A DNA stretch of 64,000 nt from positions 26,827 to 90,826 of the IMG/VR virus record IMGVR_UViG_3300022719_000284; one strand, 5' to 3'. The DNA is from a virus (lineage: Duplodnaviria > Heunggongvirae > Uroviricota > Caudoviricetes). The translations under genes were made by a program, and so were the position numbers. Shown here in pieces: positions 12,110-43,105 of this stretch; positions within the stretch are counted from its first letter, which is position 1; each line of letters starts with the position of its first letter. The notes beneath the pieces are model-generated. The model made no database searches. It had not been told where the DNA came from and saw nothing but the letters and a program-made list of their open reading frames with translations.

Positions 12110-12831
12110 GTAATATCCGGTACGTGGTAGCTTCGCTACCTCGCTCCGGTACCAAATATATCTCAACCGTTCTAACTAAGATAGGCTTGAGATGTGGTCA
12201 TGAGCAGTTTTTTGGTCTGAAGAGGAGTGAGGTAAGACTTACTAGTGTCTCCGAAATATTTGGAGACGCAAGTTGGATGTCCGTGCCCTACATACAATCT
12301 CTCCCTCCCGGCACCATAGTTTTTCACCAAGTTAGAGATCCTATAAAAGTTCTAAATTCTAATCTACCCTCTGGAGGGGACAGCTATTTTAGAACTTGGG
12401 ATGAGAATGCAGGATTATCTTCGGATCCTTTTTACAAAAAGGAGCTTCCCTGGAAAAGATTTATATGGAATCACACTCAAGATTGGGTTTGGCCACATGG
12501 TGGGGGAGAGGTTCCAGAAGGAAAAGAAGAGATTCAAAGGCTAATACATTGGTGGATTAATTGGAATCTGTGGATTGAGTTTTCTTCTTTAAAAAGATCT
12601 GATTTGACATATGTTAGATACAGGTTGGAAGATTTGACTTCAGATATTTTATATCAAATGGTTCAACTTATCAGCGAGTCTAGTTCTAGTATCACTATAA
12701 AGGATTGTGAAAAAGCTATAGCAGAGGTTCCAAGTACCACCAATAGACATAGAAAACCCAATTCTAAGATTACTGTAGATATGTTATCTCCAGCAGCAAG
12801 GTTATTAATGTATAGGTATGGGTATTTATGA
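12106..12831 (+). CDS. Sulfotransferase-like protein
   Basis: 5'-PSB loop SLPRSGTKY, GHE, HQVRDP (3'-PB), VRYRLEDL. Confidence 0.7.
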   Translation: MSNIRYVVASLPRSGTKYISTVLTKIGLRCGHEQFFGLKRSEVRLTSVSEIFGDASWMSVPYIQSLPPGTIVFHQVRDPIKVLNSNLPSGGDSYFRTWDENAGLSSDPFYKKELPWKRFIWNHTQDWVWPHGGGEVPEGKEEIQRLIHWWINWNLWIEFSSLKRSDLTYVRYRLEDLTSDILYQMVQLISESSSSITIKDCEKAIAEVPSTTNRHRKPNSKITVDMLSPAARLLMYRYGYL

Positions 12832-29953: not shown

Positions 29954-30151
29954 ATGAGCGAAAATAAGATCACTTTAGCACAACATATAAGAAATTCTCA
30001 CACCGATAAAGTTAAAGAAGGAAATGTAGTTACCGGTGATATCGTTGGGGGAGATGTAGTGAATAACGAGGAGTCTGACAGTGCCAAGGAGAATAACGAA
30101 AACGAGTCCTCCGAAGGCGATTCTCAGAGAGAGGCTTTTCGTACCAACTAA
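29954..30151 (+). CDS. Small acidic hypothetical protein overlapping the helicase start
   Basis: Starts right after the upstream stop; 71-nt overlap with the next gene. Confidence 0.35.
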   Translation: MSENKITLAQHIRNSHTDKVKEGNVVTGDIVGGDVVNNEESDSAKENNENESSEGDSQREAFRTN

Positions 30152-31574
30152 GTATGTGACTCCAGACATGAGGGATTCTTGGACTTATGAGGTTCCTGAC
30201 CCTGATGGTGATCATCCTGATGATAAAATCTCGATAGTTCTTTATCGAGAGTATAAAAATGGGTCTGTCACAGGATTCTGTAGGGGCGACCTAGGGAAGA
30301 TTCGAAAAGTCTTCAAACCGACAGGCATCCAGATAAAAGATCGCCGGGTTTGTCCTCCTATGACGCATCCTATTTCGATGCGTACAACCTTGTTCACTCC
30401 CGAAACTGATATTTATGGTAGAAATCAGCAGCAAGTTTCCAGTGAATGGAGAAAAAAAGGCTATGGACAACTTTGTTGCCCTGCAAGGTTTGGAAAAACC
30501 GTTACGGTAACTGACATTGTATGTAAAACTGGCACCAAGGCATTAATACTTTCCCACCAATGGGATATTTTAGAGCAATTTCATAGAACTATACGAGAGC
30601 ACACAGATATTGATGATGTAGAGAAAATGGCTGGTCGTAAACTAGTTGCTCTTTTGAGAGATCATAGCTGGGACGACATTGAAAATCTGGAAATAGTTCT
30701 CTCGTCTTGGCAATCATGGTGGCACCCCTCCAAGCAACATTACCTAAAAAAGCATAGAGATACTTTTGGCATTGTCTTGGTAGATGAAAGTCATTTGTCG
30801 CAAGCTTCGTGTTATAGTAAGGTAGTAAATTCTTTTAATTCCAAGTATCGTTGCGGTAATACTGCTACCCCCTTCAAAATGAATGAACTTCATGTCATAA
30901 TTGAGAATATTATCGGTCCTGTTGTAACTGAAGGCTACAGTAAGCAAATGAAGTGTGCGGTTGAATATACTCACACTGGCTACGTAGTTGAAAAATTTCC
31001 TAAGGGAAAATGGACCACTATGATCTCTAGAATTGTAGAAGACGAAAAAAGAAATCAACTCATAGTTGATAAAGCTATCGAGGATGCAGAGAATGGCCGT
31101 CACGTTCTAATTACCACGGAACGGACTGAACATGCAAAAAAATTGGCTTCTATGATAGATGAGAAAGGGATTCCTGCAATTCACGTAATAGGCTCAACTG
31201 CGGAAAGAGATGCCGTTTGGGAGAAGGCCCGCAATGGAGAAGTTAAAGTGGTAGTTGCTATGAGGAGAATAACTCGTCTAGGAATTGATGTTCCTCTATG
31301 GGATACTTTCTATAACATCATTCCTACCTCCGATCCCTACAATTATTATCAAGAATTATCAAGAATTAGAACCTTTTACGAAGGTAAGCCTTTACCTTTG
31401 ATTCGTGATTTTATCGACGACCCTGAAGAGGAAGTTCGTGGGGCTATATTTGGAACCATGAAAAAAAGAAACTCTGTATATCTAGATCAAGGGTTTGAAG
31501 TCAGAAATGCATCCTTCCGGAAGAAGACCCCTAGCAAGCGTTTTAGTTGGGGTAAGCGAACTTGTAAAGAATGA
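30081..31574 (+). CDS. Superfamily 2 (UvsW/XPB-like) helicase
   Basis: Motif I CPARFGKT, DESH, TATP, LGIDVP; GAGGAG RBS before the GTG. Confidence 0.85.
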   Translation: MPRRITKTSPPKAILRERLFVPTKYVTPDMRDSWTYEVPDPDGDHPDDKISIVLYREYKNGSVTGFCRGDLGKIRKVFKPTGIQIKDRRVCPPMTHPISMRTTLFTPETDIYGRNQQQVSSEWRKKGYGQLCCPARFGKTVTVTDIVCKTGTKALILSHQWDILEQFHRTIREHTDIDDVEKMAGRKLVALLRDHSWDDIENLEIVLSSWQSWWHPSKQHYLKKHRDTFGIVLVDESHLSQASCYSKVVNSFNSKYRCGNTATPFKMNELHVIIENIIGPVVTEGYSKQMKCAVEYTHTGYVVEKFPKGKWTTMISRIVEDEKRNQLIVDKAIEDAENGRHVLITTERTEHAKKLASMIDEKGIPAIHVIGSTAERDAVWEKARNGEVKVVVAMRRITRLGIDVPLWDTFYNIIPTSDPYNYYQELSRIRTFYEGKPLPLIRDFIDDPEEEVRGAIFGTMKKRNSVYLDQGFEVRNASFRKKTPSKRFSWGKRTCKE

Positions 31575-31601: not shown

Positions 31602-32471
31602 ATGAGAGCTTTGGTGATTTCCGGCGGGGGAGCAAAGTTTTGGTTTGGTTCTGGTGCTTTAGCCTGCTTAAAAAAGCAAGGGCAATATTTTGATCATGTT
31701 TACGGAACTAGTACCGGAGCCATATGTACCTTACTTTGGATGCAGGGTAATCCTTCTATAGCCTGGGATATGGCGGAACAAATAAAACCAACCGAATTTG
31801 TTCGCGCCACACACAATGTTGCTAAGATAAGTAGATTTGCTCAAGGTAAACCTATCGCAGATAATTCACCTATGCTCGAAAGCTTACAGAATCTTTTCCC
31901 CAGGCATACTTTGGATTTTTCTTTTAAGTCTCACTCGATAGCAAGTAATCTTATAACTCAGAAAAGAAAAGTCTTTGATTTGCTAGAGAATGACCCCGAT
32001 ATTTATAGATACGTTGTTGCTTCGTGTTCTATACCTGCTCTTTTCCCTCCCGTTAGGTTTAACGATGATTTAGTGTGTGTCGATGGAGGTGCCATCGATA
32101 ACACATTGCTTGATCCAGCTATTTCAGCCGGGTGTGACGAGATTGTTCTAATACTGTTAACTGAAAAAGAGATATATCGTTGTAATACCAATGATGTTTT
32201 TGATGTCATCAGTGCATTAACAGATGGAACGCTAGCTAACTCTGCCATTAAAGACTTGAAACTTTGTGAAGCTAGAAACTTTGTGCCTGGATTCAAGCGT
32301 GTTAAGGTAAGTCTAATTCGCCCACAGCAGAGAGTTCCTGTTGAGTTGTTTGATTGGAGTAGTAAGCAAGCGAGGATGGCCTTTGATATGGGCTATACAG
32401 ACGCCCTGAATATGGAATTGGTAATTGACCCAAAGAAACTTGACAAGTCAACAGAAAACACAGAACTTTAG
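31602..32471 (+). CDS. Patatin-like phospholipase
   Basis: ISGGGAK oxyanion loop, nucleophile GTSTG, ASCSIP, catalytic DGG. Confidence 0.88.
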   Translation: MRALVISGGGAKFWFGSGALACLKKQGQYFDHVYGTSTGAICTLLWMQGNPSIAWDMAEQIKPTEFVRATHNVAKISRFAQGKPIADNSPMLESLQNLFPRHTLDFSFKSHSIASNLITQKRKVFDLLENDPDIYRYVVASCSIPALFPPVRFNDDLVCVDGGAIDNTLLDPAISAGCDEIVLILLTEKEIYRCNTNDVFDVISALTDGTLANSAIKDLKLCEARNFVPGFKRVKVSLIRPQQRVPVELFDWSSKQARMAFDMGYTDALNMELVIDPKKLDKSTENTEL

Positions 32472-33123
32472 GTCTTTAAAAGAAGTAACTCCTAGAAACC
32501 CTTCCCAGAAAAACTATCTCGAAGCAATTGACGAAAACGTGGTCACATTTGGAATTGGTCCTGCGGGCACAGGAAAAACATTTCTTGCAATGTATAAGGC
32601 TTTATGTTACCTTTGGAGCAAAAAAACTACTGGAATAAATAGAATCATTTTAACTAGGCCAGCGGTAGAAGCAGGGGAACGTTTAGGATTTCTTCCGGGA
32701 ATTATAGAGGAAAAAATGGATCCGTTTATGCGTCCTCTATATGATGCTCTATACAACATTGCAGGGTATTCAGACGGTACAAATAAAATCAAAAAGGGTG
32801 TGATTGAAATTGCGCCAGTAGCCTTCATGAGAGGGCGTACATTAGATGATGCTTTCATAATTTTGGATGAGGCACAAAATTGTAGCTGGGAGCAGTTAAA
32901 AATGATTCTCACAAGATTGGGAGAAAACGTTAAGCTTGTGATAAGTGGAGATCCTAATCAATCTGATCTTAAAGGATCTGGTTTAAATAATATTATTGAT
33001 GCTGTAGATCGTACAAATAATGTAGAAGTAATCAGATTCCAAGCTAGAGATGTGGAGAGAAGCAAAATTGTCAAAGATATATTAACCTCTCTAGAAAAGT
33101 ATGAGAATATAAGACAAGCTTAA
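32425..33123 (+). CDS. phoH: PhoH-like ATPase
   Basis: GPAGTGKT, RPAVEAGERLGFLPG, FMRGRT, ILDEAQN, SGDPNQSD. Confidence 0.95.
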   Translation: MTQRNLTSQQKTQNFRSLKEVTPRNPSQKNYLEAIDENVVTFGIGPAGTGKTFLAMYKALCYLWSKKTTGINRIILTRPAVEAGERLGFLPGIIEEKMDPFMRPLYDALYNIAGYSDGTNKIKKGVIEIAPVAFMRGRTLDDAFIILDEAQNCSWEQLKMILTRLGENVKLVISGDPNQSDLKGSGLNNIIDAVDRTNNVEVIRFQARDVERSKIVKDILTSLEKYENIRQA

Positions 33124-33164: not shown

Positions 33165-33803
33165 ATGAATAGATTTCTTATCACAGCTTGTGGCCGGTCC
33201 GGCACTAAATTTTTAGCTGATCTTATGAATCAGTCTAAAATATGGACGGTAAACCATGAACCCGATGCTCAATGGTATCAGAGAAAAAGAATTACACAAG
33301 AAACAAGACCTCTATTACAACTAGCTTCTTACAGTAGATTCGCTAATACTATTTACTATGGAGAAGTTAATAGTTTAATGAGGCTTCTTATAATACCAAA
33401 AAAAAATTCTAATGTAAAAAGAGTTAATGATTTTCCTGTTGATAAAAAGGGTATAATTCTTAGGAACCCTTACGAACTTTTTTTATCTACTATAAACAGA
33501 CGAAATTCAGAAAAGTGGGATGAGTGCCTTTATAATCTTGAAAACGATCTTGATATTATTGAATGGTGTGTAAAGCAAAAATTTAGGAAAATACGATTCA
33601 GTAAAATGGTATCAGATACTGTATACACTCAAGAACTATTAAGAGATTTTGGTATTAATGATGTTGAGATAACTTCTAAAATGTTACAAGTTAAGAAGAA
33701 CCATACAGAAGAAAAAATAGTAACTATAGATGATCTTAACTCCACGCAGAAGGGGATTTTGAATTCGATAAGCTCAAGATTTTTAGAGAGACACGAAGTA
33801 TGA
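33165..33803 (+). CDS. Sulfotransferase-like protein
   Basis: TACGRSGTKFL 5'-PSB loop, NHEP, ILRNP. Confidence 0.7.
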   Translation: MNRFLITACGRSGTKFLADLMNQSKIWTVNHEPDAQWYQRKRITQETRPLLQLASYSRFANTIYYGEVNSLMRLLIIPKKNSNVKRVNDFPVDKKGIILRNPYELFLSTINRRNSEKWDECLYNLENDLDIIEWCVKQKFRKIRFSKMVSDTVYTQELLRDFGINDVEITSKMLQVKKNHTEEKIVTIDDLNSTQKGILNSISSRFLERHEV

Positions 33804-34597
33804 AGATTTTATATGCTGGTCCATGGGCAGGGGAATTTGGCTGGGAGCTTTGTTCGTGGAACCCTAGAATTCGCAAGCTAGCAGAGGGCTACAATCGAGT
33901 TATTGTAGAAGGACCATCTACATCAGAATATTTGTATGAATTTGCTGACGAATATATTATTAACAATACAAAACCTAATACTTCAGATGGTTATAAAGGA
34001 GAGACTACAAAGTCTGCTGGATCGAGAGAAAATGCTACTATAGTTCGACCAAACTGGGAACTTATGGGTAAGCCAGAGATGAAACTTCTCAAAGGCTCTT
34101 ATCAGGCTAACTCAGAGAAAAAATGGCGCTGTTTAGCTCCAGAAAATCCCATTGAAGTAGCAGAAGTTCTATGTTCTTTTCGCCCAGTGAAAAGATATCG
34201 TGGCAGGGTCTTAAACGACAAAGAGTATCCTAAAAAATTATGCACTCAGTTGGTAGGGGAACTAATGATTAGAGGATTCTCTGTAGCATGCATCGGAGGG
34301 TCCTCTAATTACTATATCCCTGGAACTATTGACCTTCGAGGCAAGCCTCTCGAAGAACAATGCAGTGCAATAGCGGCGAGCAAGGTTGTGCTTGGGCCTA
34401 GTAGTGGGCCATTGCACCTAGCCGCTCTATGCAATACTCCTCATGTTGTGTGGTACAACAGACCCAATCAAGTTACTTCCTACGCCCGCTACCGAGACCA
34501 TTGGAACCCATTTAACACTCCCCACACCTACCTAAAGCAGCAAATTCCTACACCTCAGCAGATTGCGGACGCGGCATCGGAGTACGGAAATGCTTAG
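33800..34597 (+). CDS. GT9-like (ADP-heptose-type) glycosyltransferase
   Basis: GEFGWEL, IDLRGKPLEEQCSAI, VLGPSSGPLHLAAL. Confidence 0.65.
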   Translation: MKILYAGPWAGEFGWELCSWNPRIRKLAEGYNRVIVEGPSTSEYLYEFADEYIINNTKPNTSDGYKGETTKSAGSRENATIVRPNWELMGKPEMKLLKGSYQANSEKKWRCLAPENPIEVAEVLCSFRPVKRYRGRVLNDKEYPKKLCTQLVGELMIRGFSVACIGGSSNYYIPGTIDLRGKPLEEQCSAIAASKVVLGPSSGPLHLAALCNTPHVVWYNRPNQVTSYARYRDHWNPFNTPHTYLKQQIPTPQQIADAASEYGNA

Positions 34598-35087
34598 CTT
34601 AAACGTAGGATGCGGAACTGATTACAGAGAGGGTTTCGTCAATATAGACGGTAGTGATGTTTTACCGCGCGTGGACCAAGTGATAGATTTCAACTCAGCT
34701 AAGCTCAGTGATCACTTCGGAGAGATTGACCACATTCTATGCAATGACTTCATAGAGCATTTCTTTCACTGGGAGGCTGTATCTTTGCTAGAAGATTTCT
34801 ACAGAGTTCTACGAGGAGGAGGTACCTTAGAGTTGCGGGTTCCTGATAGCGAGTGGATTATCAACTCTGACAAACCTACAGAGTGGAAACTTCGTCAGAT
34901 GTACGGGGGACAAGATCTTTATCAAGGCAAGATGGATTTTTCTAGAGAAGAATACCCTCAATTCTTCTGCCATAAATATGGATGGACTAGAGAAAGGATT
35001 CGTAAGGATCTAGAGAATATTGGCTTTCGAAACCTTAGATTTGAACAAGTTAATGCCAATTTCGTGACGCACGGAAGAAAGCCATGA
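34590..35087 (+). CDS. SAM-dependent methyltransferase (type 11-like)
   Basis: LNVGCG, GFVNID, FIEHF, RVLRGGGTLELRVPD. Confidence 0.85.
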   Translation: MLSLNVGCGTDYREGFVNIDGSDVLPRVDQVIDFNSAKLSDHFGEIDHILCNDFIEHFFHWEAVSLLEDFYRVLRGGGTLELRVPDSEWIINSDKPTEWKLRQMYGGQDLYQGKMDFSREEYPQFFCHKYGWTRERIRKDLENIGFRNLRFEQVNANFVTHGRKP

Positions 35088-35860
35088 AGATTTATCCCGA
35101 TCTACACGATGGTATTGTTCGCATTCGTAACAATAATGTCTGCCTAGCCCGAGGGTTCCTACAACATAAGGGTTTCTTCGATAAGGTGGTAGAAAAAGTA
35201 CAGCAAGTTGCTAGATATAAATCTGGATGTAGGGTAGAGTGGCCGTTCGAGAAGATTCACGAGCACATATCTGCGGAGAAAATAAAACTTCTGTGTACCA
35301 ATCTTGCCAGAGAGTCAGGACCTAACTCTCTGCGGATGATGATGGCCAAATTTACCCACGATGTAGTAAGGGAAGATCTAGGAGTCACAAACAAGTTCTG
35401 GCTAGACTTCCAGCCTGTGGTGCGCTTCTACACACCTCATGACTTCTGGGTAGCAAACAAAAGTCAACTAAATCTTGGGGGTCACCTCAGAATACAGGGG
35501 CCTCATCACGATACTTGGTTCGGTCACGCAACCGAGGGCATGAATCTATGGATGGCTATAGGCCCTGTCCGGCCCGGCAATGGTCTATCTTTGTACCCCG
35601 AAGCTACCGAATCAGGGTATATTAACCACGATGGGAATTACGGTATGCCTCGTGACCAGAAGCTTGGCATTCCTGTAAACTTTAACATGGATCCGGGAGA
35701 TATGCTTCTCTTCCATGGAGAAACAGTTCATTCGTCAGAGTTGAATCAAACACAAGATACTCGTTTTGTTTTGACCACGAGATTTTCGCTAGTCCCTCCT
35801 GTTTTTAAAAAGGGTGCTCACGGTGGTAACAGTCCGTGGATCACATCGGAGGAAATATGA
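35084..35860 (+). CDS. 2-oxoglutarate/Fe(II) dioxygenase, PhyH-like
   Basis: PHHDTW (HxD), NLWMAI, PGDMLLFHGETVHSS, RFVLTTRF. Confidence 0.8.
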   Translation: MKIYPDLHDGIVRIRNNNVCLARGFLQHKGFFDKVVEKVQQVARYKSGCRVEWPFEKIHEHISAEKIKLLCTNLARESGPNSLRMMMAKFTHDVVREDLGVTNKFWLDFQPVVRFYTPHDFWVANKSQLNLGGHLRIQGPHHDTWFGHATEGMNLWMAIGPVRPGNGLSLYPEATESGYINHDGNYGMPRDQKLGIPVNFNMDPGDMLLFHGETVHSSELNQTQDTRFVLTTRFSLVPPVFKKGAHGGNSPWITSEEI

Positions 35861-36102
35861 GCGAGATCAAGGTCGTAAAGTCTGGAATCATCTCCGTAGA
35901 GATCGAAGGTGAGGTACATTACTTATCTAGATACTGTACTCATGAGGGTGCTGATTTGTCTCTCGGGTATTTGGACGAATATGGTTGTCTTCGGTGCCCG
36001 TGGCACAATCTAGCGTTCGATAAGGATGGAAAGCAAATTTGCAAGAGCCTAAAGAATTTGAAGAAATATCGAAAAGAGGGTGACGAATATGTGGTTGATT
36101 AA
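35857..36102 (+). CDS. Rieske [2Fe-2S] ferredoxin
   Basis: CTHEGADL and CPWH ligand motifs in 81 aa. Confidence 0.88.
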   Translation: MSEIKVVKSGIISVEIEGEVHYLSRYCTHEGADLSLGYLDEYGCLRCPWHNLAFDKDGKQICKSLKNLKKYRKEGDEYVVD

Positions 36103-37039
36103 TACCTCTTACGGGTGGAACCCCGGAGATGACCTAATTAGGGAGGGGGTATTCAATCTCTTAAGGTTAAGCCAAGTTACTCCCAAGGTTTTTGTTAATA
36201 GAGGGCAGACAAAGGTAAATGATAAAACTGTTCCTATCTGGAAGATTCTTCGTAATTTCGAGTCTACGGAACATCTGGTATCTCAAGCAACAGGCATAAT
36301 TATGGCAGGAAGTCCGGAATGGGTAGATTTCTTTGAAGATTTCTATATACAAGCGTCTGCATACAATGTTCCAATATACATGGTTGGTATTGGGATGAGA
36401 TCGGTATCTAAAGATGCTAACAATCTAGTAAACAGTGTTAAACACTTGATAAAAGGGGCCACTGTAAGGGATAAACATGCTTCTGCTGCTCTAAAAAGTT
36501 GCGGAATTGAGTCTCAATGGTTTCCTGATCCAGCTTTCTCTGCATCGTATACCATTCCTACATCGAAACGTTACGGGTTGGTTGTTAATTATAGATCTCA
36601 TGGAGGTAACGGGACATTCAAGGATACTTATGATGATAAATGGAGAGAAATAGCTAAAAAATATGAAAGCGATATAGAGATTGTAACAGTGCATGAACAA
36701 GGTGAATACAAAAAAGCAAAAAAGATTTTTAGTTCTCCTGTTTTCTATAGTTCTGATTACACAGATTACAAGTACATATACTCTAACACAAAGTTATACA
36801 TAGGAGGAAGAATTCACGGGGCTACACCTGTTTTGTCTACAGGAGGTACAGCTTACTTGATTTACAATTCTCCTAAAATAGATGCTCTTCAGAAAGTATC
36901 TAAATTTATGGATACTTTAAAAGTGTTGAACTTTAATTCCCCAGTACCCGATATAAGTTACATAGATTCTACATTGGCTATTAAAAGACTTCAAGAATAC
37001 ATTCAACAACACAAGAGATATTGGGAACTTCGTTTATGA
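36080..37039 (+). CDS. Polysaccharide pyruvyltransferase-family protein
   Basis: GWNPGDDLI, VGIG, TVRDKHS, FPDPAF, GGRIHG. Confidence 0.8.
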   Translation: MTNMWLINTSYGWNPGDDLIREGVFNLLRLSQVTPKVFVNRGQTKVNDKTVPIWKILRNFESTEHLVSQATGIIMAGSPEWVDFFEDFYIQASAYNVPIYMVGIGMRSVSKDANNLVNSVKHLIKGATVRDKHASAALKSCGIESQWFPDPAFSASYTIPTSKRYGLVVNYRSHGGNGTFKDTYDDKWREIAKKYESDIEIVTVHEQGEYKKAKKIFSSPVFYSSDYTDYKYIYSNTKLYIGGRIHGATPVLSTGGTAYLIYNSPKIDALQKVSKFMDTLKVLNFNSPVPDISYIDSTLAIKRLQEYIQQHKRYWELRL

Positions 37040-37956
37040 AATTTCTCTTGCTTTGTTCTTCAAACCCCATTGGGACTGCATTTGGGATGCAGCACGGCCT
37101 AAAACAAGGAGGGCACGTAGCTGATATGTTCTTTGCAGATAAGTGGAAAGCAAGAGAAATTATTTCAATGTCTGATAGATACGACAGTATAATTGTGTGT
37201 AAGGGTACCATGATTAGGAACTTAGATGAATACCAAATGGTATTTAGTAAAGTTGCAGATTCAACTTACTTCATCCCTGATGTGGTTAATAGGGGCAAAA
37301 GAGCAGATTCAGTAGGACCTAGAGGTATGATTTGTACTCGAATAGTATGCACTGGCACGGAAGCGGCCAAGTGGTATAGGGATAATGGCTATTCTGGTAG
37401 AATAGCACAAATATATCAAGGATACAGGCCACATATATGGCAGCCAGGAGAGGGTCCGGGAGGCACGCAAGATAGAGTATCTTTTTTGGGGTCTTTCTAC
37501 AAAGATGACGGAGGCAGAGAATTCAAGTTAAAATCACTCCAAAATAAAGGCTATAAGATCTTAGTACGGAATAATATTTTTCATAAAGAAGCAGCTAGTA
37601 TTTATTGGACTAGCGCTATAAATATAAATTTTTCTGCCTGGGATTGCACCTCTAACAGAGCTATTAGAGTGATGGCATCTGGGGGCTTTCTTTTAACAGA
37701 ATGGAACAGAGATATTGAAGCTACATTTGAACCCGGAAACCAATTGGACTGGTTTAAAACAGAGAAAGAAATGCAAGAAAAGGTTAAATTTTATATTAAT
37801 AATCCAGATGTAAGGAGAAAAATAGCGAAAAGAGGAAGAGATTGGGCTAAAGAAAGAGACTGGACATCGCAAATGAACAAAATTGTAAAATTCATCCAAG
37901 GGGAAGAAGATTTTTGTGATGGAGATGCTAGGGAGTATACTAGTGAAACATTATGA
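37036..37956 (+). CDS. CgeB-like GT-B glycosyltransferase (paralog 1)
   Basis: VSFLGS, INF...SNRAIRVMASGGFLLT, RRKIAKRG. Confidence 0.75.
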   Translation: MKFLLLCSSNPIGTAFGMQHGLKQGGHVADMFFADKWKAREIISMSDRYDSIIVCKGTMIRNLDEYQMVFSKVADSTYFIPDVVNRGKRADSVGPRGMICTRIVCTGTEAAKWYRDNGYSGRIAQIYQGYRPHIWQPGEGPGGTQDRVSFLGSFYKDDGGREFKLKSLQNKGYKILVRNNIFHKEAASIYWTSAININFSAWDCTSNRAIRVMASGGFLLTEWNRDIEATFEPGNQLDWFKTEKEMQEKVKFYINNPDVRRKIAKRGRDWAKERDWTSQMNKIVKFIQGEEDFCDGDAREYTSETL

Positions 37957-38536
37957 ACCAAGAAAATACTGGCCCGAAAGACTAAAAAAGCAGGGAAAAA
38001 ATTATGTTGCCTGGAGAAACGAGGCTAAAGCTTTTAGCAAGCAAGAAAGAGTATTCTGGAATGCTATACAACCATTGCTTCCATCAGGCGGACGTGTTTT
38101 GGATTTTGGGTGTGGGGTGGGTAGGTTTACAACTGTAATATCTTCAATAGTAGATCAATACGACGGAGTTGATCTGAATAAAGAAGCTCTAGAGTTTGCG
38201 CCTTCTGTAGATAATGCGACATTTACATACCTTCTAGAAGATAATTTGCCATTTGATGAAAATACTTTTGATGGGGCATTAGCTTTAACTGTTTTGCAAC
38301 ACATAGTAGATCCCCAATCATTTGAACTTTGGACGAATGAACTAGCTAGAGTAATAAAGCCGGGAGGGTTTTTTATAGGTATCGAAACTCCTTCTCTCAA
38401 GGTAAAGCCAGCTCCTCACATGAGGTGGAGAACTTCAAAAATTATTGCCGAAGCCCTAGGAGGGCGTGTAGAAACGGTTCACAATATTTCTGCTGAGTTT
38501 CAAAATTCCCATTATTGTTTTCTAGCTAGATTGTAA
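37916..38536 (+). CDS. Class I SAM-dependent methyltransferase
   Basis: VLDFGCGVG, GVDLN, LPFDENTFD, VLQHI, RVIKPGG. Confidence 0.88.
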   Translation: MMEMLGSILVKHYEPRKYWPERLKKQGKNYVAWRNEAKAFSKQERVFWNAIQPLLPSGGRVLDFGCGVGRFTTVISSIVDQYDGVDLNKEALEFAPSVDNATFTYLLEDNLPFDENTFDGALALTVLQHIVDPQSFELWTNELARVIKPGGFFIGIETPSLKVKPAPHMRWRTSKIIAEALGGRVETVHNISAEFQNSHYCFLARL

Positions 38537-38545
38537 GAAGTAATA

Positions 38546-39520
38546 ATGAAAATCGCTTGGCTTACGAAATTTAAAGGGATAGAGTCCACTAATGTTGGCA
38601 TGATAGCTGCTTTGGAAGAACTAGGTCACCAAGTAATGGTTACCAATTCTCAGAAGTATGCTACCAGGGGACACCATGAAGAGGCTTTAAGGTCGTTCTT
38701 AGAGGATTGCCAAAAAGCAGATGCATGCGTAGTTACCAAGGGGAATTGGATTCCTAAAAATAGATTTCAATGGTTAGCTAATCAAGTTGATTTAACTATG
38801 TTTATCCCGGACTCTATAAGTGTTGGGCCCCCTGGTAGAGATATCGAACACGGACATAGGGCTCTAATGTGTAATAGAGTTATACTTACTGGAACTGAAG
38901 GGGCTAGGTGGTTAAGAGAAAACGGATATAGAAATAGGATAGCTCAGATTTATCAAGGATATCGCCCCGACGTATGGAGAAGAAAAGAAAAGTACACTAC
39001 TAACACTCAGATCGTGTTTTTAGGAAGTGTGTACAAAGGGGATGGAAATAGAAGAGCAAAAATGAATGCCATAACTAGAGCTGGCTTTACAATGCATTAC
39101 CATCGTAGAACTTTTATGGAGAAGGCAGCTAAACTGTACTACAATACTCCTATATCAATTAATTTTAATTGTGGGGATATAACGTCAAATAGAGTTATGA
39201 GAATTATGGCATCTAGGGGATTCTGTTTATCACAATCCAATGCAGATATCAAACACTCTTTCAGCAATGGAACTGAACTGGCGTGGTGGGATGAACCAGA
39301 AGGGGACAGCATAAGCGAAAAAGCTATGCTAGATTCCATAAGGTATTGGCTAGATCATGAAAACGCTAGAAACCTAGTAGCAGAAACAGGATACGAGTGG
39401 GCTAAAAATAAGACTTGGGTGGACCAAATGGAAAAGCATATAAGATTCATCCAGGGAGAAATAGTACCTGCGGACGGGGCAGCTAGTCCTTATGTCGAAG
39501 ACCAGAATACTCCTAACTAG
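38546..39520 (+). CDS. CgeB-like GT-B glycosyltransferase (paralog 2)
   Basis: RIAQIYQGYRP shared with paralog 1, VFLGS, TSNRVMRIMASRGFCL. Confidence 0.75.
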   Translation: MKIAWLTKFKGIESTNVGMIAALEELGHQVMVTNSQKYATRGHHEEALRSFLEDCQKADACVVTKGNWIPKNRFQWLANQVDLTMFIPDSISVGPPGRDIEHGHRALMCNRVILTGTEGARWLRENGYRNRIAQIYQGYRPDVWRRKEKYTTNTQIVFLGSVYKGDGNRRAKMNAITRAGFTMHYHRRTFMEKAAKLYYNTPISINFNCGDITSNRVMRIMASRGFCLSQSNADIKHSFSNGTELAWWDEPEGDSISEKAMLDSIRYWLDHENARNLVAETGYEWAKNKTWVDQMEKHIRFIQGEIVPADGAASPYVEDQNTPN

Positions 39521-40292
39521 GCTAGGCGGAGCTGGCGATATGATAATGACGGAACCTGTACTACAGGCTCTTTATGATAAATATTATCCATGTCACATAA
39601 CTTATAGAACCCACAGACATTATTATGATTTACTTTTGTTTCATCCTTTGATAGATGAAATTTTATGTACTAGAACAGGATGCTGGACCCCCACACCTGA
39701 GGGGTATGATATCCATGTAAATTTACATGAAGTTATAGAGAAAGCACCTTTTGGGGTTCATGGAATTGACGCTTTTGCGTTAGCAGCCGGAGTAAAGCTA
39801 CCCAGAAGGATACCCAGATTGGCATTAGACGGCGTGAGTCGCCGCGTGAGGACAGAAGACGATAGGTACCCCGTGGTAACCCACCCTCCTGTAAAAATAC
39901 CCCCAAAAAGCGATATATCTTTTCACATTCCTCACGAAACGAGAAATCTATCTTGGAAAGATGGAATGGGTGTTTTGAAAAAGTTTATGGATTACTTTAA
40001 TTCTCGGGGGGAAAAACCTTCCATTAGACTGGTGGGACAAGACCCTATGGAGCCCGGAAAAAGTCATATGTTAAAAATGGCTTGGGAGATAAAACAATCA
40101 AAAATGTTTGTTGGGCCCGACAGTGGGGGGTTTCATATATCTGTTGCCTTAGACGTTCCCACCATAGTTTCTTTGACTTCGAAGTTTCCAGCTTCCATGA
40201 GAGGTTACTCTAAAGCAGTAGCTGTAGAAGATGATTTGAACCAAGTGTTCCCCACGGCATTGGCGCTATATAGAAAGATTAAAAATGGGTAG
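39492..40292 (+). CDS. GT9-family glycosyltransferase
   Basis: RLGGAGDMIMTEP, HPLIDE, FVGPDSGGFHISVAL. Confidence 0.8.
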   Translation: MSKTRILLTRLGGAGDMIMTEPVLQALYDKYYPCHITYRTHRHYYDLLLFHPLIDEILCTRTGCWTPTPEGYDIHVNLHEVIEKAPFGVHGIDAFALAAGVKLPRRIPRLALDGVSRRVRTEDDRYPVVTHPPVKIPPKSDISFHIPHETRNLSWKDGMGVLKKFMDYFNSRGEKPSIRLVGQDPMEPGKSHMLKMAWEIKQSKMFVGPDSGGFHISVALDVPTIVSLTSKFPASMRGYSKAVAVEDDLNQVFPTALALYRKIKNG

Positions 40293-41226
40293 AGTTATAC
40301 GACCTTCTCCAGGGAATCCAGTGCAACCCCCTTCATCTAATAAGGCTACTATCCCTACGTCCGGAATACCTCCATTTGATGCTGAAGAATATTTCAAAAA
40401 TTATGATCACGAGGCTGTTTGGGATCTATCTTCTCGTACTATGATTACTCCGGCTTGTTACAACAGAAAAGAGACAGTTAAGCATTGTGTTGGCGCGACA
40501 AACAGATACAAATTGGGGGCAAAAGTATACATCCATGATGACGGTTCAGACGAATATGATGTAGAATGGTTAAGCCAATTCGGAGATAGGGTTTTTAGGC
40601 ATCCCCGCAGTGAAGGTGGAAGGAAAGGTGTAAAGAACATTCGATCTAATATCACCAAAAGTGTTTTAGGGGAATTTGAACCGGATATATTTCTAGAATG
40701 GATAAAGCAGGATTATGGGACAGACGGCCCCGAATACCTGTACCACGTAGATAGTGATGGGTACCACGATCCGCACTTCTTCTACAGGATTCACGAAATA
40801 ATGAATCTATATCCAAACTGGGGAGTAATTTGTCTGTACAATGCTAAATTCCACTCCCCTAGAAGGAACAAATCAGAAAATAATGTCATAAATTACCATA
40901 CAGTGGTAAGAGGGATGTCCGCTGGCATATCTATGTTTTTTCGAGTAGAAAGTTTTAGAAAAAATCCAAAGTATGTTCAGGTCCCTGATGGAAGAGGGTG
41001 GGATGGGTTTTACTCTCAGACCATAGGAAATCGTAGAGTTGTTACATCTTTGGTCAGCTATGTTGAACATTTTGGTAAGTGGGGATTCCATAACAAAGGT
41101 AGTTTTGATAGAGACAGAGCTTTAAATCCTACTTCTTACTTGGCTAGCATTCGGGGTGATGTTATTCGCGATATTGAAGAACAATTTCATTTAACTCAAA
41201 ATGAGTCCAAGGTTTTGGAAAAATAG
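40285..41226 (+). CDS. GT2/GT-A glycosyltransferase with Pro-rich N-terminus
   Basis: IHDDGSD, YHVDSDG (DxD), WD, SYVEHFG. Confidence 0.75.
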   Translation: MGRVIRPSPGNPVQPPSSNKATIPTSGIPPFDAEEYFKNYDHEAVWDLSSRTMITPACYNRKETVKHCVGATNRYKLGAKVYIHDDGSDEYDVEWLSQFGDRVFRHPRSEGGRKGVKNIRSNITKSVLGEFEPDIFLEWIKQDYGTDGPEYLYHVDSDGYHDPHFFYRIHEIMNLYPNWGVICLYNAKFHSPRRNKSENNVINYHTVVRGMSAGISMFFRVESFRKNPKYVQVPDGRGWDGFYSQTIGNRRVVTSLVSYVEHFGKWGFHNKGSFDRDRALNPTSYLASIRGDVIRDIEEQFHLTQNESKVLEK

Positions 41227-41234
41227 GAAAACAG

Positions 41235-41525
41235 ATGTCTATAGAGATAAAATATGTAGTGCAATATCGTAGGGAAGGTGCTAAAAAGTGGATAGATTCC
41301 CACATCGAGGCTTTCCCCTTGAGACCAAGTAAAGCTTTGATAAATGATAAATGATGAATTCATGGAAACCGCTAGAGATCTAGTACACTACTCTTGGAAG
41401 GATGATATTCCACATCTTAGGGGGATTTTGAGGTAAGGGTGGTGAGAAGGGAGCTAATAAAGAAGGAGATCCCCCTCAAAGGGATTAAACGGTTCAAGAA
41501 CAAAGATATAATTGCAGGCATATAA
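41235..41525 (+). pseudogene. Disrupted ORF (7-bp duplication and 1-bp deletion)
   Basis: GATAAAT x2 at 41339-41352 creates TGA; repairing both lesions gives a continuous ~95-aa reading MSIEIKYVVQYRREG...HLRGI(F/L)EVRVVRRELIKKEIPL... Confidence 0.5.
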
Positions 41526-41626
41526 TTGAAAGAACTACATCAAGAGGACAAACGGGAGCATACCAAAGGCCCTGGAAGCCCTGTGGAGCGAGGATTGGAA
41601 AATATACCCCGTCTCGGACTTTAGAA

Positions 41627-41739
41627 TGGCGGCGAGGGTTGGATTCGAACCCACGAGGATGAAGGTGCTGGTTTGACCGCCCTCCCCTTCTCCTACCGGC
41701 TTCTAAGGCCGGCGCAATAAGCCTCTCTGATACTCTAAA
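41627..41739 (-). tRNA. Aberrant or pseudo tRNA, anticodon UAG (Leu), Ser-like body, 41-nt variable arm, broken 5' acceptor strand
   Basis: Encoded CCA, G73, T-loop TTCGAAT, anticodon arm CCGGC-CTTAGAA-GCCGG, D-region CAGAGAGGCTTATTGCG; the 5' strand TTTAGAG does not pair with CCTCGCC. Confidence 0.7.
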
Positions 41740-41765
41740 AGAAATTAGAGGAAGAGTATTCGCAT

Positions 41766-42251
41766 ATGATTGAAAAAATTATCTCAGGAGGGCAAACAGG
41801 GGCAGATCAAGGGGGCTTGGAAGCCGCTGTAGTATTGGGGATTGAAACAGGAGGAAAGGTTCCCAGAGGGTTTAAAACTGAAAAAGGGCCTCAACCAGAG
41901 TTGAGTAATTTATATGGTCTAGAGGAATTATCTTCAGATGAGTACCCTCCTAGAACACGGTACAATATTTTAGATTCTGACGGAACGGTTATATTCGGGC
42001 TTGTTAGTTCAGTAGGCTCTCGTATGACTCGGGAAATGTGCAAACAAAATGGAAAACCTTGGTTAGTAATAGAATCGTTTGACGAGACTTATTTTCGTCT
42101 TTTTGGAGAATGGGTCTTGATAAACCAAATCAAAGTGCTAAATGTAGCCGGTAATCGGGAATCTAAGTCTCCCGGTATTCAAAACAAGGTACGAAACTTT
42201 TTAATAGAAGTAATAGGAGATGATGAAAGTGAAGTCGTTAAAAGATATTGA
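41766..42251 (+). CDS. SLOG-superfamily protein (putative molybdenum carrier / YpsA-like)
   Basis: KIISGGQTGADQGGL, YPPRTRYNILDSDGT, LNVAGNRES. Confidence 0.85.
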   Translation: MIEKIISGGQTGADQGGLEAAVVLGIETGGKVPRGFKTEKGPQPELSNLYGLEELSSDEYPPRTRYNILDSDGTVIFGLVSSVGSRMTREMCKQNGKPWLVIESFDETYFRLFGEWVLINQIKVLNVAGNRESKSPGIQNKVRNFLIEVIGDDESEVVKRY

Positions 42252-42501
42252 GAATGATGTTCATGAGTTTCTTATTAATTTAGCCAATGTCAGGAGAGTC
42301 GATGTGAAATCGTCTGTAGATTCTGACAACAAAAATAAAGTAGTAGCTACTACGTTTATACTTTCGGACACTAAAGAGAATAGACACAGGGTTTATTTGA
42401 CTGAACAGATACTTATGGAACGACATAAGAATGTCCTTTTTGACTTTTCCATCTCCACACTAAAGGAAGGGCATGAGCAGAGGTCCGTGGAATCGCCGTA
42501 A
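42220..42501 (+). CDS. Hypothetical protein
   Basis: 93 aa, overlaps both neighbours. Confidence 0.55.
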   Translation: MMKVKSLKDIENDVHEFLINLANVRRVDVKSSVDSDNKNKVVATTFILSDTKENRHRVYLTEQILMERHKNVLFDFSISTLKEGHEQRSVESP

Positions 42502-43105
42502 ACCGAGAGAATACTATACAGCCTCAAAATGGAATAGGGTACAATGGGCTTGCGGTATTCCCCAGAGATTTTGGGGAATTAAGCAGGATTCTGTTGTTCC
42601 TTCCTCATTTCAATATGAAAATAAAGATGGATCCATTCAAAGGATAGCCTCCTCTACACAACAGGAATATCTAAATGCTCGAATAGAGCACCCTGAGCTA
42701 TTAACTGAAAATAGGCTTATATGTATAACTTCGTACCCATCTGACGAGCATGGACTAGCTGCGGCATGTTTACTAGCGAGTAAACTAGTTGAAAAGCAAT
42801 GGGCAGCTAACAAAGCTCCAAAAGTCAGGATAGACGATATTCAGGATTACGAACAAGCTAGAAAGTTACAGGTTCCGTTCTTTTCAGTAGAACCTGACAT
42901 GTTATTGATTCATAATTTGAATGATAACACATCCAGAGAACGCCTCTCATTAGTGAGGGATATTCTTCTGTCCTTCGAGGGGACTTACCGTGGGGTAGTT
43001 GCTGCGGCAGATAACCCACTCAAATTCGCCAGAGAAACATTGCGAATTGAGCCACATGAGTCCTACCATTTCGAAGGACGACCCAGGAAAATTATTGTTA
43101 AATGA
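42473..43105 (+). CDS. DnaC/IstB-like helicase-loader homolog with degenerate Walker A
   Basis: CGIPQRFW, LAAACLLASKL, PDMLLIHNL, position directly upstream of dnaB. Confidence 0.5.
   Translation: MSRGPWNRRKPREYYTASKWNRVQWACGIPQRFWGIKQDSVVPSSFQYENKDGSIQRIASSTQQEYLNARIEHPELLTENRLICITSYPSDEHGLAAACLLASKLVEKQWAANKAPKVRIDDIQDYEQARKLQVPFFSVEPDMLLIHNLNDNTSRERLSLVRDILLSFEGTYRGVVAAADNPLKFARETLRIEPHESYHFEGRPRKIIVK

Follow-up and report, generated by a model that had tools for sequence, protein, structure and literature searches.

A content-variable glycan island with a split PhyH-Rieske oxygenase in a jumbo phage with collagen-like fibres

Among the replication genes of an uncultured jumbo phage, represented by a 210-kb IMG/VR record that is 77% complete, there is a block of eleven genes whose predicted products would assemble a glycan and decorate it chemically. 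The question raised by this locus is how the glycan would be built and to what it would be attached. The window is here the whole 64,000-nucleotide stretch analysed, and the positions of the cassette and its flanks are given within it. As the initial annotation described, the eleven ORFs are co-directional on the + strand, occupy exactly 33165-41226 and mostly overlap; the overlaps are 4 to 59 bases, and the only gaps are 41 bp 5' of ORF1 and 9 bp 5' of ORF9. All of the family assignments made there are supported, albeit weakly for ORF10, ORF11 and ORF3, and the products appear soluble, as had been proposed, since none of the 11 contains a membrane segment (no 19-residue stretch above 1.4 on the Kyte-Doolittle scale).

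ORF2 (33800-34597, +) is a short GT9-like GT-B glycosyltransferase of 265 aa. Its family profile matches exclusively GT9 structures, and the best 20 PDB matches of its predicted structure (pLDDT 95.2) are all GT9. ORF10 (39492-40292, +) is assigned to GT9 through NCBIfam matches to heptosyltransferases III and I at its N and C ends, while its Pfam GT9 score of 19.2 bits is below the cut-off of 22; it has paralogs among the GT9-methyltransferase genes that are present elsewhere in the genome (genome positions 115181-116317 and 113550-114707). ORF7 (37021-37956, +; Pfam 67.4 bits), a GT-B enzyme, and ORF9 (38546-39520, +; 35.3 bits) are glycosyltransferases of the Glyco_trans_1_2 (CgeB-type) family and paralogous to each other, with 36% identity. 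ORF11 (40285-41226, +) is a GT-A (GT2-like) glycosyltransferase according to PF00535 (24.3 bits), and its Atlas features give 0.98 to GT2 clusters. Class I SAM methyltransferases are predicted for ORF8 (37916-38536, +; Methyltransf_11, 55 bits) and, more weakly, for ORF3 (34563-35087, +; Methyltransf_23, 29.2 bits, barely above the cut-off).

The first of the decorating enzymes, ORF1 (33165-33803, +), has no Pfam match of its own, and is identified as a PAPS-type sulfotransferase by its motifs and its predicted fold. Across 25 homologs, little or no variation is seen in GRSGTK (the 5'-PSB motif) and in R100/S108 (the 3'-PB pair). Two homologs carry PF00685 or PF13469, and the best PDB matches of the predicted structure (pLDDT 90.6) are PAPS sulfotransferases (TPST1/2, 3rnl, SULT7A1, HS 2-OST and Stf0). 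In other IMG/VR phages, this family adjoins glycosyltransferases, methyltransferases or an epimerase. ORF6 (36080-37039, +) is a polysaccharide pyruvyl transferase, that is, a PEP-dependent ketal former, and matches PF04230 (PS_pyruv_trans) with 66.4 bits over practically the full length of the profile (positions 1-278 of 280). All 21 of its 21 homologs are metagenomic and phage-like, and in an unrelated large phage one is surrounded by glycosyltransferase genes and by fibre genes of the Laminin_G_3 and tail-collar types.

We now consider ORF4 and ORF5, whose relation to each other was missed by the initial annotation. ORF4 (35084-35860, +; Pfam PhyH, 37.8 bits) is a PhyH-type Fe(II)/2OG oxygenase with an invariant HxD...H motif plus arginine (H141, D143, H216 and R227), and ORF5 (35836-36102, +; Rieske, 47.1 bits) is an 88-aa Rieske [2Fe-2S] protein with the cluster motif CxH...CxxH (C34-x-H36...C54-x-x-H57). 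ORF4 has 272 homologs, the majority of them 380-450 aa long, and all eight of the long ones scanned (382-519 aa) have a C-terminal Rieske domain. ORF5 can be aligned to the Rieske domains of these fusions, with R32, D40, G65 and C69 in common. Judged by sequence, ORF4 and ORF5 are thus the catalytic half and the split-off C-terminal domain of a split form of the bacterial PhyH-Rieske fusion family, an oxygenase family that is hitherto unstudied. The predicted complex of the two scores 0.92, compared to 0.20 for the best of three controls, with at least 93% contact agreement between runs and a partner pLDDT of at least 88. Among solved complexes 58 of 80 attain this value, and among mismatched pairs 2 of 110; these counts hold only roughly here, since custom alignments were supplied for the prediction, and it should be pointed out that the halves of split genes tend to pass such a test. 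The modelled interface brings the Rieske ligand loops (H36 and C54-H57) into contact with ORF4 residues 139-140 and 217-220, which adjoin the iron ligands H141, D143 and H216. The prediction supports binding between ORF4 and ORF5.

The bacterial members of this family give an indication of the reaction context. Of 29 genome loci with the PhyH-Rieske fusion, 7 have a pyruvyl transferase within 8 kb, compared to none of 50 Rieske-only control loci (Fisher p = 5e-4), and the two genes are directly adjacent in L011/L012 as well as on a contig of 203 kb. These counts show, at the level of gene neighbourhoods, that the family is genomically tied to pyruvyl transferases. The coupling is frequent and not obligatory, as the other 22 of the 29 fusions have no pyruvyl transferase nearby and four loci (L106, L107, L010 and L009) have an ORF6-type gene without PhyH-Rieske. 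The seven paired loci (L011, L015, L016, L020, L034, L040 and L042) belong to Nostoc, Desmonostoc, Microcoleus, Methylocaldum and Verrucomicrobiaceae, and the neighbours in five of them include Wzt, a Wzx-like protein, GT2, GT4, GT9, a methyltransferase and a deacetylase. All of the pairs examined lie within loci for exported, lipid-linked polysaccharides, and in L011/L012, L020 and L042 the pair directly adjoins a Wzt with the cap-binding Wzt_C domain. These ABC-transporter- or Wzx-dependent loci share with the phage the PhyH, Rieske and pyruvyl transferase domains, as well as GT2, GT9 and methyltransferases, and in L011/L012 and L042 also the order of PhyH-Rieske followed by pyruvyl transferase. 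However, in the bacteria PhyH and Rieske form one polypeptide, with merely 31-44% identity to ORF4, and exporters are present at the locus, while the phage has two genes and no exporter.

The synteny check that the initial annotation suggested reveals a feature that it had missed. The cassette recurs in related phages at a fixed site between phoH and cpYpsA/DnaB, and the comparison of at least four phage types shows, in terms of gene content, that it is one allele of a content-variable island whose glycosyltransferase/methyltransferase core persists while the decorating enzymes are exchanged. L002/L104 has all 11 genes at 39-81% amino-acid identity (ten at 55-81%, ORF9 at 39%), about as well conserved as the flanks (62-71%), and additionally carries an NAD epimerase and a second sulfotransferase as inserted genes. 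L007, L008 and L105 retain solely ORF2, 8, 9, 10 and 11; in place of the others they have TylF methyltransferases, a radical SAM enzyme, an epimerase, and glycosyltransferases and sulfotransferases different from those of the cassette, and L106 retains ORF2, 3, 6, 7, 9 and 11. ORF2, ORF9 and ORF11 are thus present in all four island types (A-D) and ORF10 and ORF8 in three, both being absent in type D. The identities are 45-71% for ORF2 (L002, L007, L008, L105, L106), 39-44% for ORF9 (all relatives), 65-68% for ORF11 (L002, L007, L105, L106), 68-72% for ORF10 and 44-55% for ORF8 (both L002, L007, L008, L105), and for ORF3 78% in L002 and 61% in L106. A PfkB kinase is also found in the relatives, in addition to the radical SAM enzyme.

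The flanks are as originally described, with phoH upstream and replication genes downstream. On the left, a ResIII/Helicase_C helicase (30081-31574, +), a patatin-like phospholipase (31602-32471, +) and PhoH (32425-33123, +), all assigned by Pfam, also precede the island in L002, L003, L005 and L008, at 62-71% identity. On the right, cpYpsA (41766-42251, +), two small ORFs (+) and a DnaB-like helicase (43102-44475, +), assigned by Pfam for the two named genes, form a conserved segment (41766-44475) whose order is the same 3' of the island in L007, L104, L105 and L106; a 5'-3' exonuclease and UvrD follow. The right edge is a non-coding gap (41227-41765) where ARAGORN finds no tRNA and Rfam gives a degraded tRNA-like remnant on the minus strand (41637-41733; 18.2 bits, gathering score 29); in L002/L104 a 772-aa Laminin_G_3 gene takes its place. 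The only evidence bearing on the description of the phage as lytic is that the 210-kb record contains no tyrosine integrase.

From this gene content we infer in which order the steps would follow, which sugars would be used and what the acceptor would be. The enzymes would act in the cytoplasm of the infected cell with donors made by the host. The core (ORF2, ORF9, ORF11, ORF10 and ORF8) would build a methylated oligosaccharide, to which ORF1 would add sulfate from PAPS, ORF3 a methyl group and ORF7 one further sugar. ORF6 would form a pyruvate ketal on a sugar with PEP as donor, and ORF4 and ORF5, as a two-subunit oxygenase, would belong to the same group of steps, their substrate probably being the pyruvylated residue or its neighbour. 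The proposed reliance on host NDP/ADP-sugars, PAPS, PEP and SAM is supported by the record, in which no genes for sugar-nucleotide, PAPS or carrier-lipid synthesis, export or priming were found; the search covered epimerase, nucleotidyltransferase, APS kinase, ligase/polymerase and ABC exporter, and extends to the whole record the lack of flippase and polymerase noted earlier for the cassette. As the record is 77% complete, these absences are provisional.

Concerning the acceptor, the initial annotation listed the virion, DNA and host LPS; DNA now appears unlikely, and the host envelope is the main rival to the virion. The phage's own virion proteins rank first among the candidate acceptors, with odds that are roughly even. 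At least six collagen-like ORFs are present in the record, in which 48-85% of the triplets have threonine as residue Y, and such ORFs are numerous in both searchable relatives too. Triplets of this G-X-Thr kind carry the O-glycans of the BclA proteins of spores. The proposal, on which our confidence is evenly balanced, is that the variable glycan island of these collagen-fibred jumbo phages decorates virion proteins, chiefly the G-X-Thr collagen-like fibres. In addition to these ORFs, we count in its favour the lack of membrane segments and of priming, export and ligase genes, the ORF10 paralogs, the ORF6 homolog amid fibre genes and the precedent of the Megavirinae (PMC10117803). Against it, the island is located in the replication region, outside the structural block. 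It is also important that fibres and island co-occur in three genomes only, all of one lineage, and therefore represent a shared trait and no independent co-variation.

If instead the host envelope were the target, which we consider rather unlikely, the enzymes would modify lipid A-core or undecaprenyl-linked O-polysaccharide or capsule intermediates at the inner membrane face, and host exporters would deliver the altered glycan to the surface, where superinfection would be blocked or progeny kept off debris. Lipid A-Kdo is what GT9 enzymes classically glycosylate, and the cassette has both the folds and the motifs of GT9; bacterial glycosyltransferases for lipid-linked glycans are likewise soluble or peripheral, the island is placed with early/replication genes, and the same idea was put forward for 24 'LPS' genes of the lytic cyanophage P-SSM2 (PMC1079782). 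The exported, lipid-linked setting of the bacterial PhyH-Rieske/pyruvyl transferase pairs would fit this target at least as well. However, the record lacks a priming transferase, flippase, ABC exporter, polymerase/ligase and integrase, and a host intermediate carrying five sugars and four to five decorations must suit the specificity of the host exporter. Furthermore, ORF2 and ORF10 have ca 265 aa, compared to 320-350 aa for WaaC/WaaF, which means that the acceptor-binding half is reduced.

That the island is a host polysaccharide locus captured passively and recently, and serves no function in the phage, is near refuted. The mosaic GC content (31.5% in ORF1, 43-46% in ORF2-5, 37-39% in ORF6-7) and the typically bacterial gene families would agree with such a capture, but the core persists in four island types, the block is conserved in a relative to a degree similar to its flanks, all catalytic motifs are intact, and the closest homologs of ORF1, ORF2 and ORF6 are on phage-like contigs. 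Nor was a homologous multi-gene block, the intact host LPS or capsule locus that capture would imply, found in the bacterial loci with ORF4/5 relatives, where the other nine genes were searched for; the sole exception is the L034 pyruvyl transferase, a weak BLAST match to ORF6 (24%). An improbable alternative is a free or small-molecule-linked decorated oligosaccharide (for example a glycolipid, glycosylated metabolite or osmolyte-like compound) that would benefit the infection and is not anchored to virion, envelope or DNA. All of the enzymes are soluble with no fused acceptor-recognition domain, PhyH-family and class I methyltransferase enzymes are common in natural-product tailoring, and the radical SAM enzyme and PfkB kinase of the relatives point the same way. 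Yet five glycosyltransferases and a polysaccharide-type pyruvyl transferase indicate a carrier-bound oligo- or polysaccharide, the ORF4-6 module has its bacterial homologs within surface-polysaccharide loci, and the island has no aglycone-forming genes. Highly improbable, finally, is DNA hypermodification, in which the glycosyltransferases would act on a hydroxylated pyrimidine and the other enzymes would decorate the glycan against host nucleases. The island is among replication genes and adjoins cpYpsA (SLOG), phage glycosyltransferases related to LPS and teichoic-acid enzymes place mono- to tri-saccharides, including heptose, on 5hmC (bioRxiv 10.1101/2023.12.21.572611), and arabinosylated 5hoC is known (PMC13326640). 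On the other hand, no thymidylate-synthase homolog, TET/JBP oxygenase or C5 cytosine methyltransferase, the known preparing enzymes, was found in the 77% complete record, the TET/JBP absence being weak because that search was positive in no control genome. ORF4 is of PhyH type and not a 5-methylpyrimidine dioxygenase, and the pyruvyl transferase, sulfotransferase and PhyH-Rieske module are polysaccharide-locus enzymes. The predicted fold of ORF2 matches GT9, with T4 beta-glucosyltransferase appearing first at rank 48 (TM 0.36).

Decoration of collagen-like virion fibres would have counterparts elsewhere. In the exosporium or crust of Bacillus and Clostridioides, collagen-like BclA-type proteins are glycosylated by SgtA, CgeB and related enzymes, the threonines of the (G-X-T)n filaments being decorated by soluble glycosyltransferases and methyltransferases on a particle assembled inside the cytoplasm. 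The phage resembles this system in the CgeB-type domain of ORF7 and ORF9 and in its G-X-T-rich fibres, but its enzymes share the domain family only, with no sequence-level orthology, and to our knowledge sulfation and pyruvylation are not among the known features of BclA glycans. Freeman et al. are said to have reported in 2023 that glycosyltransferases encoded by mycobacteriophages glycosylate capsid and tail proteins. Unlike the present cassette, those systems have one to few glycosyltransferases adjoining structural genes, and they lack decoration by sulfation, pyruvylation or oxidation.

The initial view of an undescribed system was overstated, considering the comparable clusters at a fixed, clade-variable locus in Megavirinae (PMC10117803) and the 'LPS' clusters of P-SSM2 (PMC1079782). 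What is new here is the variable island, the split-fusion relation of ORF4 and ORF5 together with the tie of their family to pyruvyl transferases, the absence of donor, export and DNA-preparation genes, and the G-X-Thr collagen-like fibres. By gene content, the known system most similar to the island is found in the Megavirinae (Mimivirus, Megavirus, Moumouvirus, Cotonvirus and Tupanvirus), whose fibril-glycosylation clusters are clade-specific (PMC10117803; PMC8456856). Both are virus-encoded, with multiple glycosyltransferases, a pyruvyltransferase (L143 and Mg538 in Megavirinae), sulfate-modifying enzymes and methyltransferases, and both have a fixed genomic place and a content that varies by clade; the Megavirinae glycan covers the fibrils of the virion, and collagens are likewise encoded by Mimivirus. 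They differ in that the present virus is a tailed phage of a bacterium with a putative glycan acceptor, that its allele has no nucleotide-sugar synthesis genes, and that its glycosyltransferases are short GT9-like and CgeB-type enzymes accompanied by a split PhyH-Rieske oxygenase. The clusters of the lytic P-SSM2 are rich in nucleotide-sugar synthesis genes, unlike this cassette, and have in common with it the presence of a large sugar-gene cluster in a phage genome (PMC1079782).

The eleven ORFs of the cassette lie on the plus strand at 33165–41226 of the window, which covers bases 26827–90826 of a 210,369-bp record with an estimated completeness of 77%. Most adjacent ORFs overlap, the overlaps being of 4 to 59 bases, and spacers are seen at two places only (41 bp before ORF1 and 9 bp before ORF9). 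The gene content and coordinates described in the initial annotation were found to be correct, the families being backed by Pfam, NCBIfam, ESM Atlas or structure matches; Pfam itself backs nine of the eleven ORFs, with ORF10 below the cut-off, ORF3 weak and ORF11 borderline. The described placement between phoH and the replisome holds as well, with a helicase, a patatin and PhoH on the left, and cpYpsA, DnaB, a 5'-3' exonuclease and a 631-aa ORF, identified by tblastn as a UvrD helicase, on the right. No hydrophobic segment was found in any of the eleven proteins, in agreement with the earlier statement that the cassette has no obvious membrane protein. Sites resembling sigma-70 promoters are no more frequent than expected (22 observed, 33 expected), no convincing terminator was found inside the cassette, and the motif TAAAGTTY occurs 17 times, which is not a significant enrichment over the expected 10.2 ± 3.7, with no plus-strand copy ahead of the cassette.

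Searches with the 8-kb block (megablast) and with ORF6 (tblastn) against 50,697 GenBank phage records gave zero matches, and by this measure the phage belongs to a lineage without a cultured relative. The comparison with PHROGs returned nothing useful, and a scan of IMG/VR with ORF6 as a single protein gave no match. Relatives were instead found via homologs of ORF2 on large phage contigs and via a scan with ORF10, which adds a 266-kb IMG/VR genome. The close relatives come from samples of the JGI 33000377xx series.

In all of these relatives, the same slot, reaching from helicase-patatin-PhoH to cpYpsA-DnaB, holds a run of sugar-related genes, and four island types occur between phoH and cpYpsA. 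Type A comprises the window and a 184-kb contig (L002/L104), which have all 11 genes in common at 39–81% amino acid identity (ten genes at 55–81% and ORF9 at 39%; the flanks are at 62–71%). This contig has two genes more than the window: ORF4 and ORF5 are separated by a second sulfotransferase gene, and an NAD epimerase/dehydratase gene precedes ORF9. Types B (contigs L008 and L105) and C (L007) retain only ORF2 (47–50% identity), ORF8 (44%), ORF9 (42%), ORF10 (68–72%) and ORF11 (65–68%), the replacements being TylF-type methyltransferases, a radical SAM enzyme, other glycosyltransferases, other sulfotransferases and an epimerase. In the type B genome, which is 89% complete, a pyruvyl transferase is lacking altogether. 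Type D (L106) has ORF2, ORF3, ORF6, ORF7, ORF9 and ORF11, and is without PhyH or Rieske. Judged by its gene content, the island is a recurring glycosyltransferase/methyltransferase core with exchangeable decorating enzymes. Since the core recurs while the decorating genes are swapped, the explanation that the block is a passive recent capture is close to refuted.

We now consider ORF4 and ORF5, the PhyH and Rieske proteins. ORF4 matches Pfam PhyH with 37.8 bits (cut-off 22), and its iron triad HxD...H (H141, D143, H216) and the 2OG-binding arginine R227 are invariant in 40 sequences. An exhaustive search yielded 272 relatives of ORF4, mostly of 380–450 aa, and a C-terminal Rieske domain was found in all eight of the long homologs that were scanned (382–519 aa). 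With these fused Rieske domains, ORF5 has R32, C34, H36, D40, C54, H57, G65 and C69 in common, that is, the cluster ligands and four more invariant residues. ORF4 and ORF5 are thus assigned, on conserved sequence, as a split member of a PhyH-Rieske fusion family, and together would constitute one enzyme. The family is represented in the ESM Atlas by clusters of 90, 372 and 80 bacterial members, and we found no paper on it.

Structure prediction supports binding between the two proteins. The predicted complex has a score of 0.92, to be compared with 0.20 for the best of three controls, and at least as high a score was obtained for 58 of the 80 solved complexes and 2 of the 110 mismatched pairs used for calibration; these counts are only rough, as own alignments were used, and the halves of split genes tend to pass such a test. 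At least 93% of the contacts are common to the runs, and the pLDDT of the partner is at least 88. The model places the Rieske ligand loops of ORF5 against the ORF4 residues beside the iron ligands, and this geometry, if correct, is as expected for electron transfer from the cluster to the iron.

The bacterial members of the fusion family provide a link to the neighboring ORF6. This ORF matches PF04230 (PS_pyruv_trans) with 66.4 bits (cut-off 25.3) over profile positions 1–278 of 280; the option that it is a CsaB ortholog was ruled out, as the CsaB equivalog model gives only 33 bits against 213. On a 3-Mb bacterial contig (L011/L012), the fusion gene overlaps a PS_pyruv_trans gene downstream, and the pair is located just after Wzm and Wzt (the latter with a Wzt_C domain) amid GT2, GT4 and methyltransferase genes, while on a 203-kb contig the pyruvyl transferase is ca 700 bp from the fusion gene. 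Among species genomes, a pyruvyl transferase is found within 8 kb in 7 of 29 full-length fusion loci vs none of 50 loci with the Rieske motif only (Fisher p = 5e-4). The neighbors in five of these seven loci include Wzt, a Wzx-like flippase, GT4, GT2, GT9, a methyltransferase and polysaccharide deacetylases. The order in the phage, PhyH-Rieske-pyruvyl transferase, is also that in L011/L012 and in a further bacterial locus, L042. From this pairing and the shared gene order, ORF4/ORF5 would act on the sugar chain in the same group of steps as ORF6. The link is not obligatory, since relatives of ORF6 occur without PhyH-Rieske in four phage contigs, and in bacteria 22 of the 29 fusions lack a pyruvyl transferase in their vicinity. 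The recurrent pairing hints at an undescribed kind of surface-polysaccharide modification. Hydroxylation of collagen Lys/Pro by ORF4, as with Mimivirus L230, was also considered and was rejected as the lead idea, the family being located in polysaccharide loci adjoining pyruvyl transferases.

Some further features of the bacterial loci should be mentioned. The fusion/pyruvyl transferase pair lies directly after a Wzt ATPase with a carbohydrate-binding Wzt_C domain in L011/L012 (6695–10396), L020 (5244–9275) and L042 (5693–10329), from which position it may make a chain-end cap that is recognised by Wzt_C. The pyruvyl transferase of L042 is fused to a GT2. In the Breoghania-like locus L014 (4703–9350), the fusion is instead accompanied by an EPSP-synthase-type enolpyruvyl transferase, together with a PhzF-like protein, an aminotransferase and a radical SAM enzyme; here, too, a PEP-using transferase adjoins the fusion, but the locus has the appearance of a small-molecule pathway.

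For the putative PAPS-dependent sulfotransferase ORF1, which has no Pfam or NCBIfam match of its own, the assignment comes from two PAPS-binding motifs. The 5'-phosphosulfate-binding loop (GxxRSGT[TK]; GRSGTK in ORF1) is at least 90% conserved at R11, S12, G13, T14 and K15 among 25 homologs, and the Arg...Ser pair binding the 3'-phosphate, eight residues apart (R100 and S108), is invariant in them. The model (pLDDT 90.6) has TPST2/1, 3rnl, SULT7A1 and HS 2-OST as best PDB matches (E 5e-5 to 5e-3, TM 0.48–0.60), with P-loop kinases close behind. PF00685 or PF13469 is found on two of the homologs, and the family profile retrieved no sulfotransferase from the PDB sequences. Members of the family are present on 15 further IMG/VR contigs, and in the six contigs checked, nine of the ten neighboring genes scanned encode a glycosyltransferase, methyltransferase or epimerase. 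Because of these neighbors, the family is assigned to glycan rather than protein-tyrosine sulfation.

ORF2 has no Pfam match, but its family profile matches only GT9 chains in the PDB, and all of the Foldseek top 20 in the PDB for its model (pLDDT 95.2) are GT9, with the T4 DNA beta-glucosyltransferase only at rank 48. The predicted fold is GT-B, nearest to WaaC/WaaF. The C-terminal GT9 donor-site motif, G-x-D/S-S-G-x-x-H-[LI]-A-A, reads GPSSGPLHLAAL in ORF2 and GPDSGGFHIAAALG in the ORF10 consensus. ORF10 itself scores 19.2 bits with Pfam GT9 (cut-off 22), and NCBIfam heptosyltransferase models match it at both ends, far under their cut-offs. Both proteins are ca 265 aa long, compared to the 320–350 aa typical of GT9. 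ORF7 and ORF9 match Glyco_trans_1_2 (PF13524, cut-off 25) with 67.4 and 35.3 bits, in the C-terminal half only, CgeB-type being a domain label here. For ORF11, a candidate GT2, the PF00535 score of 24.3 bits is above the cut-off of 23.3, yet no single stretch exceeds it; its Atlas features are at 0.98 to clusters in which 50% of the members have PF00535. Finally, Pfam methyltransferase matches were obtained for ORF8 and, weakly, for ORF3.

The 210-kb record contains no NAD epimerase/dehydratase, sugar nucleotidyltransferase or APS kinase, which means that the donors must come from the host, as had been proposed. Neither a Wzy/ligase (Wzy_C) nor an ABC-2 permease (ABC2_membrane) was found in the record, and with no membrane segment in the cassette these features of a bacterial O-antigen, capsule or LPS-core locus are lacking. 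The record has no tyrosine integrase.

As to the acceptor of the glycan, virion proteins are favored on the basis of the gene context. Six collagen-like ORFs (337–1195 aa), a lower bound for the genome, are located outside the window at 136868–158119 of the genome. Threonine is the third residue in 48–85% of their G-X-Y triplets (in the protein of 1195 aa, at genome 136868–140452, in 160 of 190), which gives several hundred potential O-glycosylation sites. In BclA-type spore proteins, G-X-T repeats are the O-glycosylated part. Many collagen-like ORFs are also present in both relatives searched (L104 and L105). Paralogs of ORF10 are found among GT9-methyltransferase genes elsewhere in the same genome, near the fibre genes, and the ORF6 homolog of an unrelated large phage (L009) is surrounded by fibre genes of the Laminin_G_3 and tail-collar kinds and by glycosyltransferase genes. 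These contexts and that of the ORF1 family favor the virion, as circumstantial evidence. A serious rival is remodelling of the host envelope, which is suggested by the bacterial loci where the ORF4–ORF6 module occurs and by the role classically ascribed to GT9. Glycosylation of the phage DNA was also considered. The known routes need an enzyme that makes a hydroxyl anchor (bioRxiv 10.1101/2023.12.21.572611; PMC13326640), be it a ThyA-type hydroxymethylase, a 5hoC synthase, or a C5-methyltransferase in combination with a TET/JBP oxygenase, and the 77%-complete record has no thymidylate-synthase homolog (PF00303), no C5 cytosine methyltransferase (PF00145) and no TET/JBP oxygenase (PF12851, a profile that matched no control genome either). 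With none of the three present in the record, these routes are not visible here.

Taking virion proteins as the acceptor, the picture that we put forward is a tentative one and, as a whole, rather unlikely. The island would be a 'serotype' locus for the phage's own sugar coat, an anionic, methylated glycan with sulfate and pyruvate groups on the G-X-Thr collagen-like fibres, with the decoration swapped among relatives as in O-antigen loci. ORF4/ORF5 would belong to a so far uncharacterised type of oxygenase, its PhyH-type iron centre being supplied by a Rieske cluster; together with pyruvyl transferases, this enzyme would make a new oxidised glycan cap in bacteria and phages. A fixed-site island with swappable content would confer a glycan 'serotype' on the phages, with a bearing on adsorption, environmental stability and recognition by hosts and grazers.

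Giant viruses and a few mycobacteriophages are known to glycosylate their virions with enzymes of their own; to our knowledge, this has hardly been explored in phages of environmental bacteria. The closest described system is the fibril-glycosylation clusters of the Megavirinae (PMC10117803). Like these, the phage island has glycosyltransferases and decorating enzymes at a fixed locus with lineage-specific content. It differs in having no sugar-nucleotide synthesis genes, in its glycosyltransferase families, in the split PhyH-Rieske module, and in belonging to a bacterial virus. The cyanophage P-SSM2 carries 24 'LPS' genes whose target is unknown (PMC1079782), and four core glycosyltransferase families are mentioned briefly for the 'moraphages' (PMC12619734). 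New here are the typing of the island in relatives, the recognition of the split fusion and of its link with pyruvyl transferases, the predicted folds for ORF1 and ORF2, the negative tests of the DNA and export routes, and the G-X-T count of the fibres.

A number of minor observations concern the island and its edges. The GC content varies across 33165–37956 of the window, with 31.5% in ORF1, 43–46% in ORF2–ORF5 and 37–39% in ORF6–ORF7 (window ca 40%), and this mosaic suggests different sources for the acquired decorating genes. In the closest relative, a 772-aa Laminin_G_3 gene is located between the last island gene and cpYpsA (L002 19537–20720; L104 about 11717–14068), whereas the window instead has a 540-bp non-coding gap, in which no remnant of the gene was found by blastn or tblastx. 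Inside this gap (41227–41765), on the minus strand at 41637–41733, there is a degraded tRNA-like remnant with the T arm GGTTCGAATCC, an anticodon-loop-like CUUAGAA and a long variable region. A genuine tRNA gene was rejected, as the score with the Rfam tRNA model is 18.2 bits (gathering score 29) and ARAGORN finds none. Lying exactly at the right edge of the island, the remnant may indicate where an insertion or recombination took place in the past.

In the flanks, the patatin-like phospholipase gene (window 31602–32471) is directly before phoH in every relative examined. The phoH of L008 (5595–7289) encodes 564 aa, and a LAGLIDADG_3 domain, absent from the phoH of the window, splits its PhoH domain in the manner of an intein or homing-endonuclease insertion. 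In the 266-kb relative (L105 16685–19630), the UvrD-like helicase has 981 aa vs 631 aa in the window, and its alignment is broken by ca 1 kb of unmatched sequence, which may be another intein or an inserted domain.
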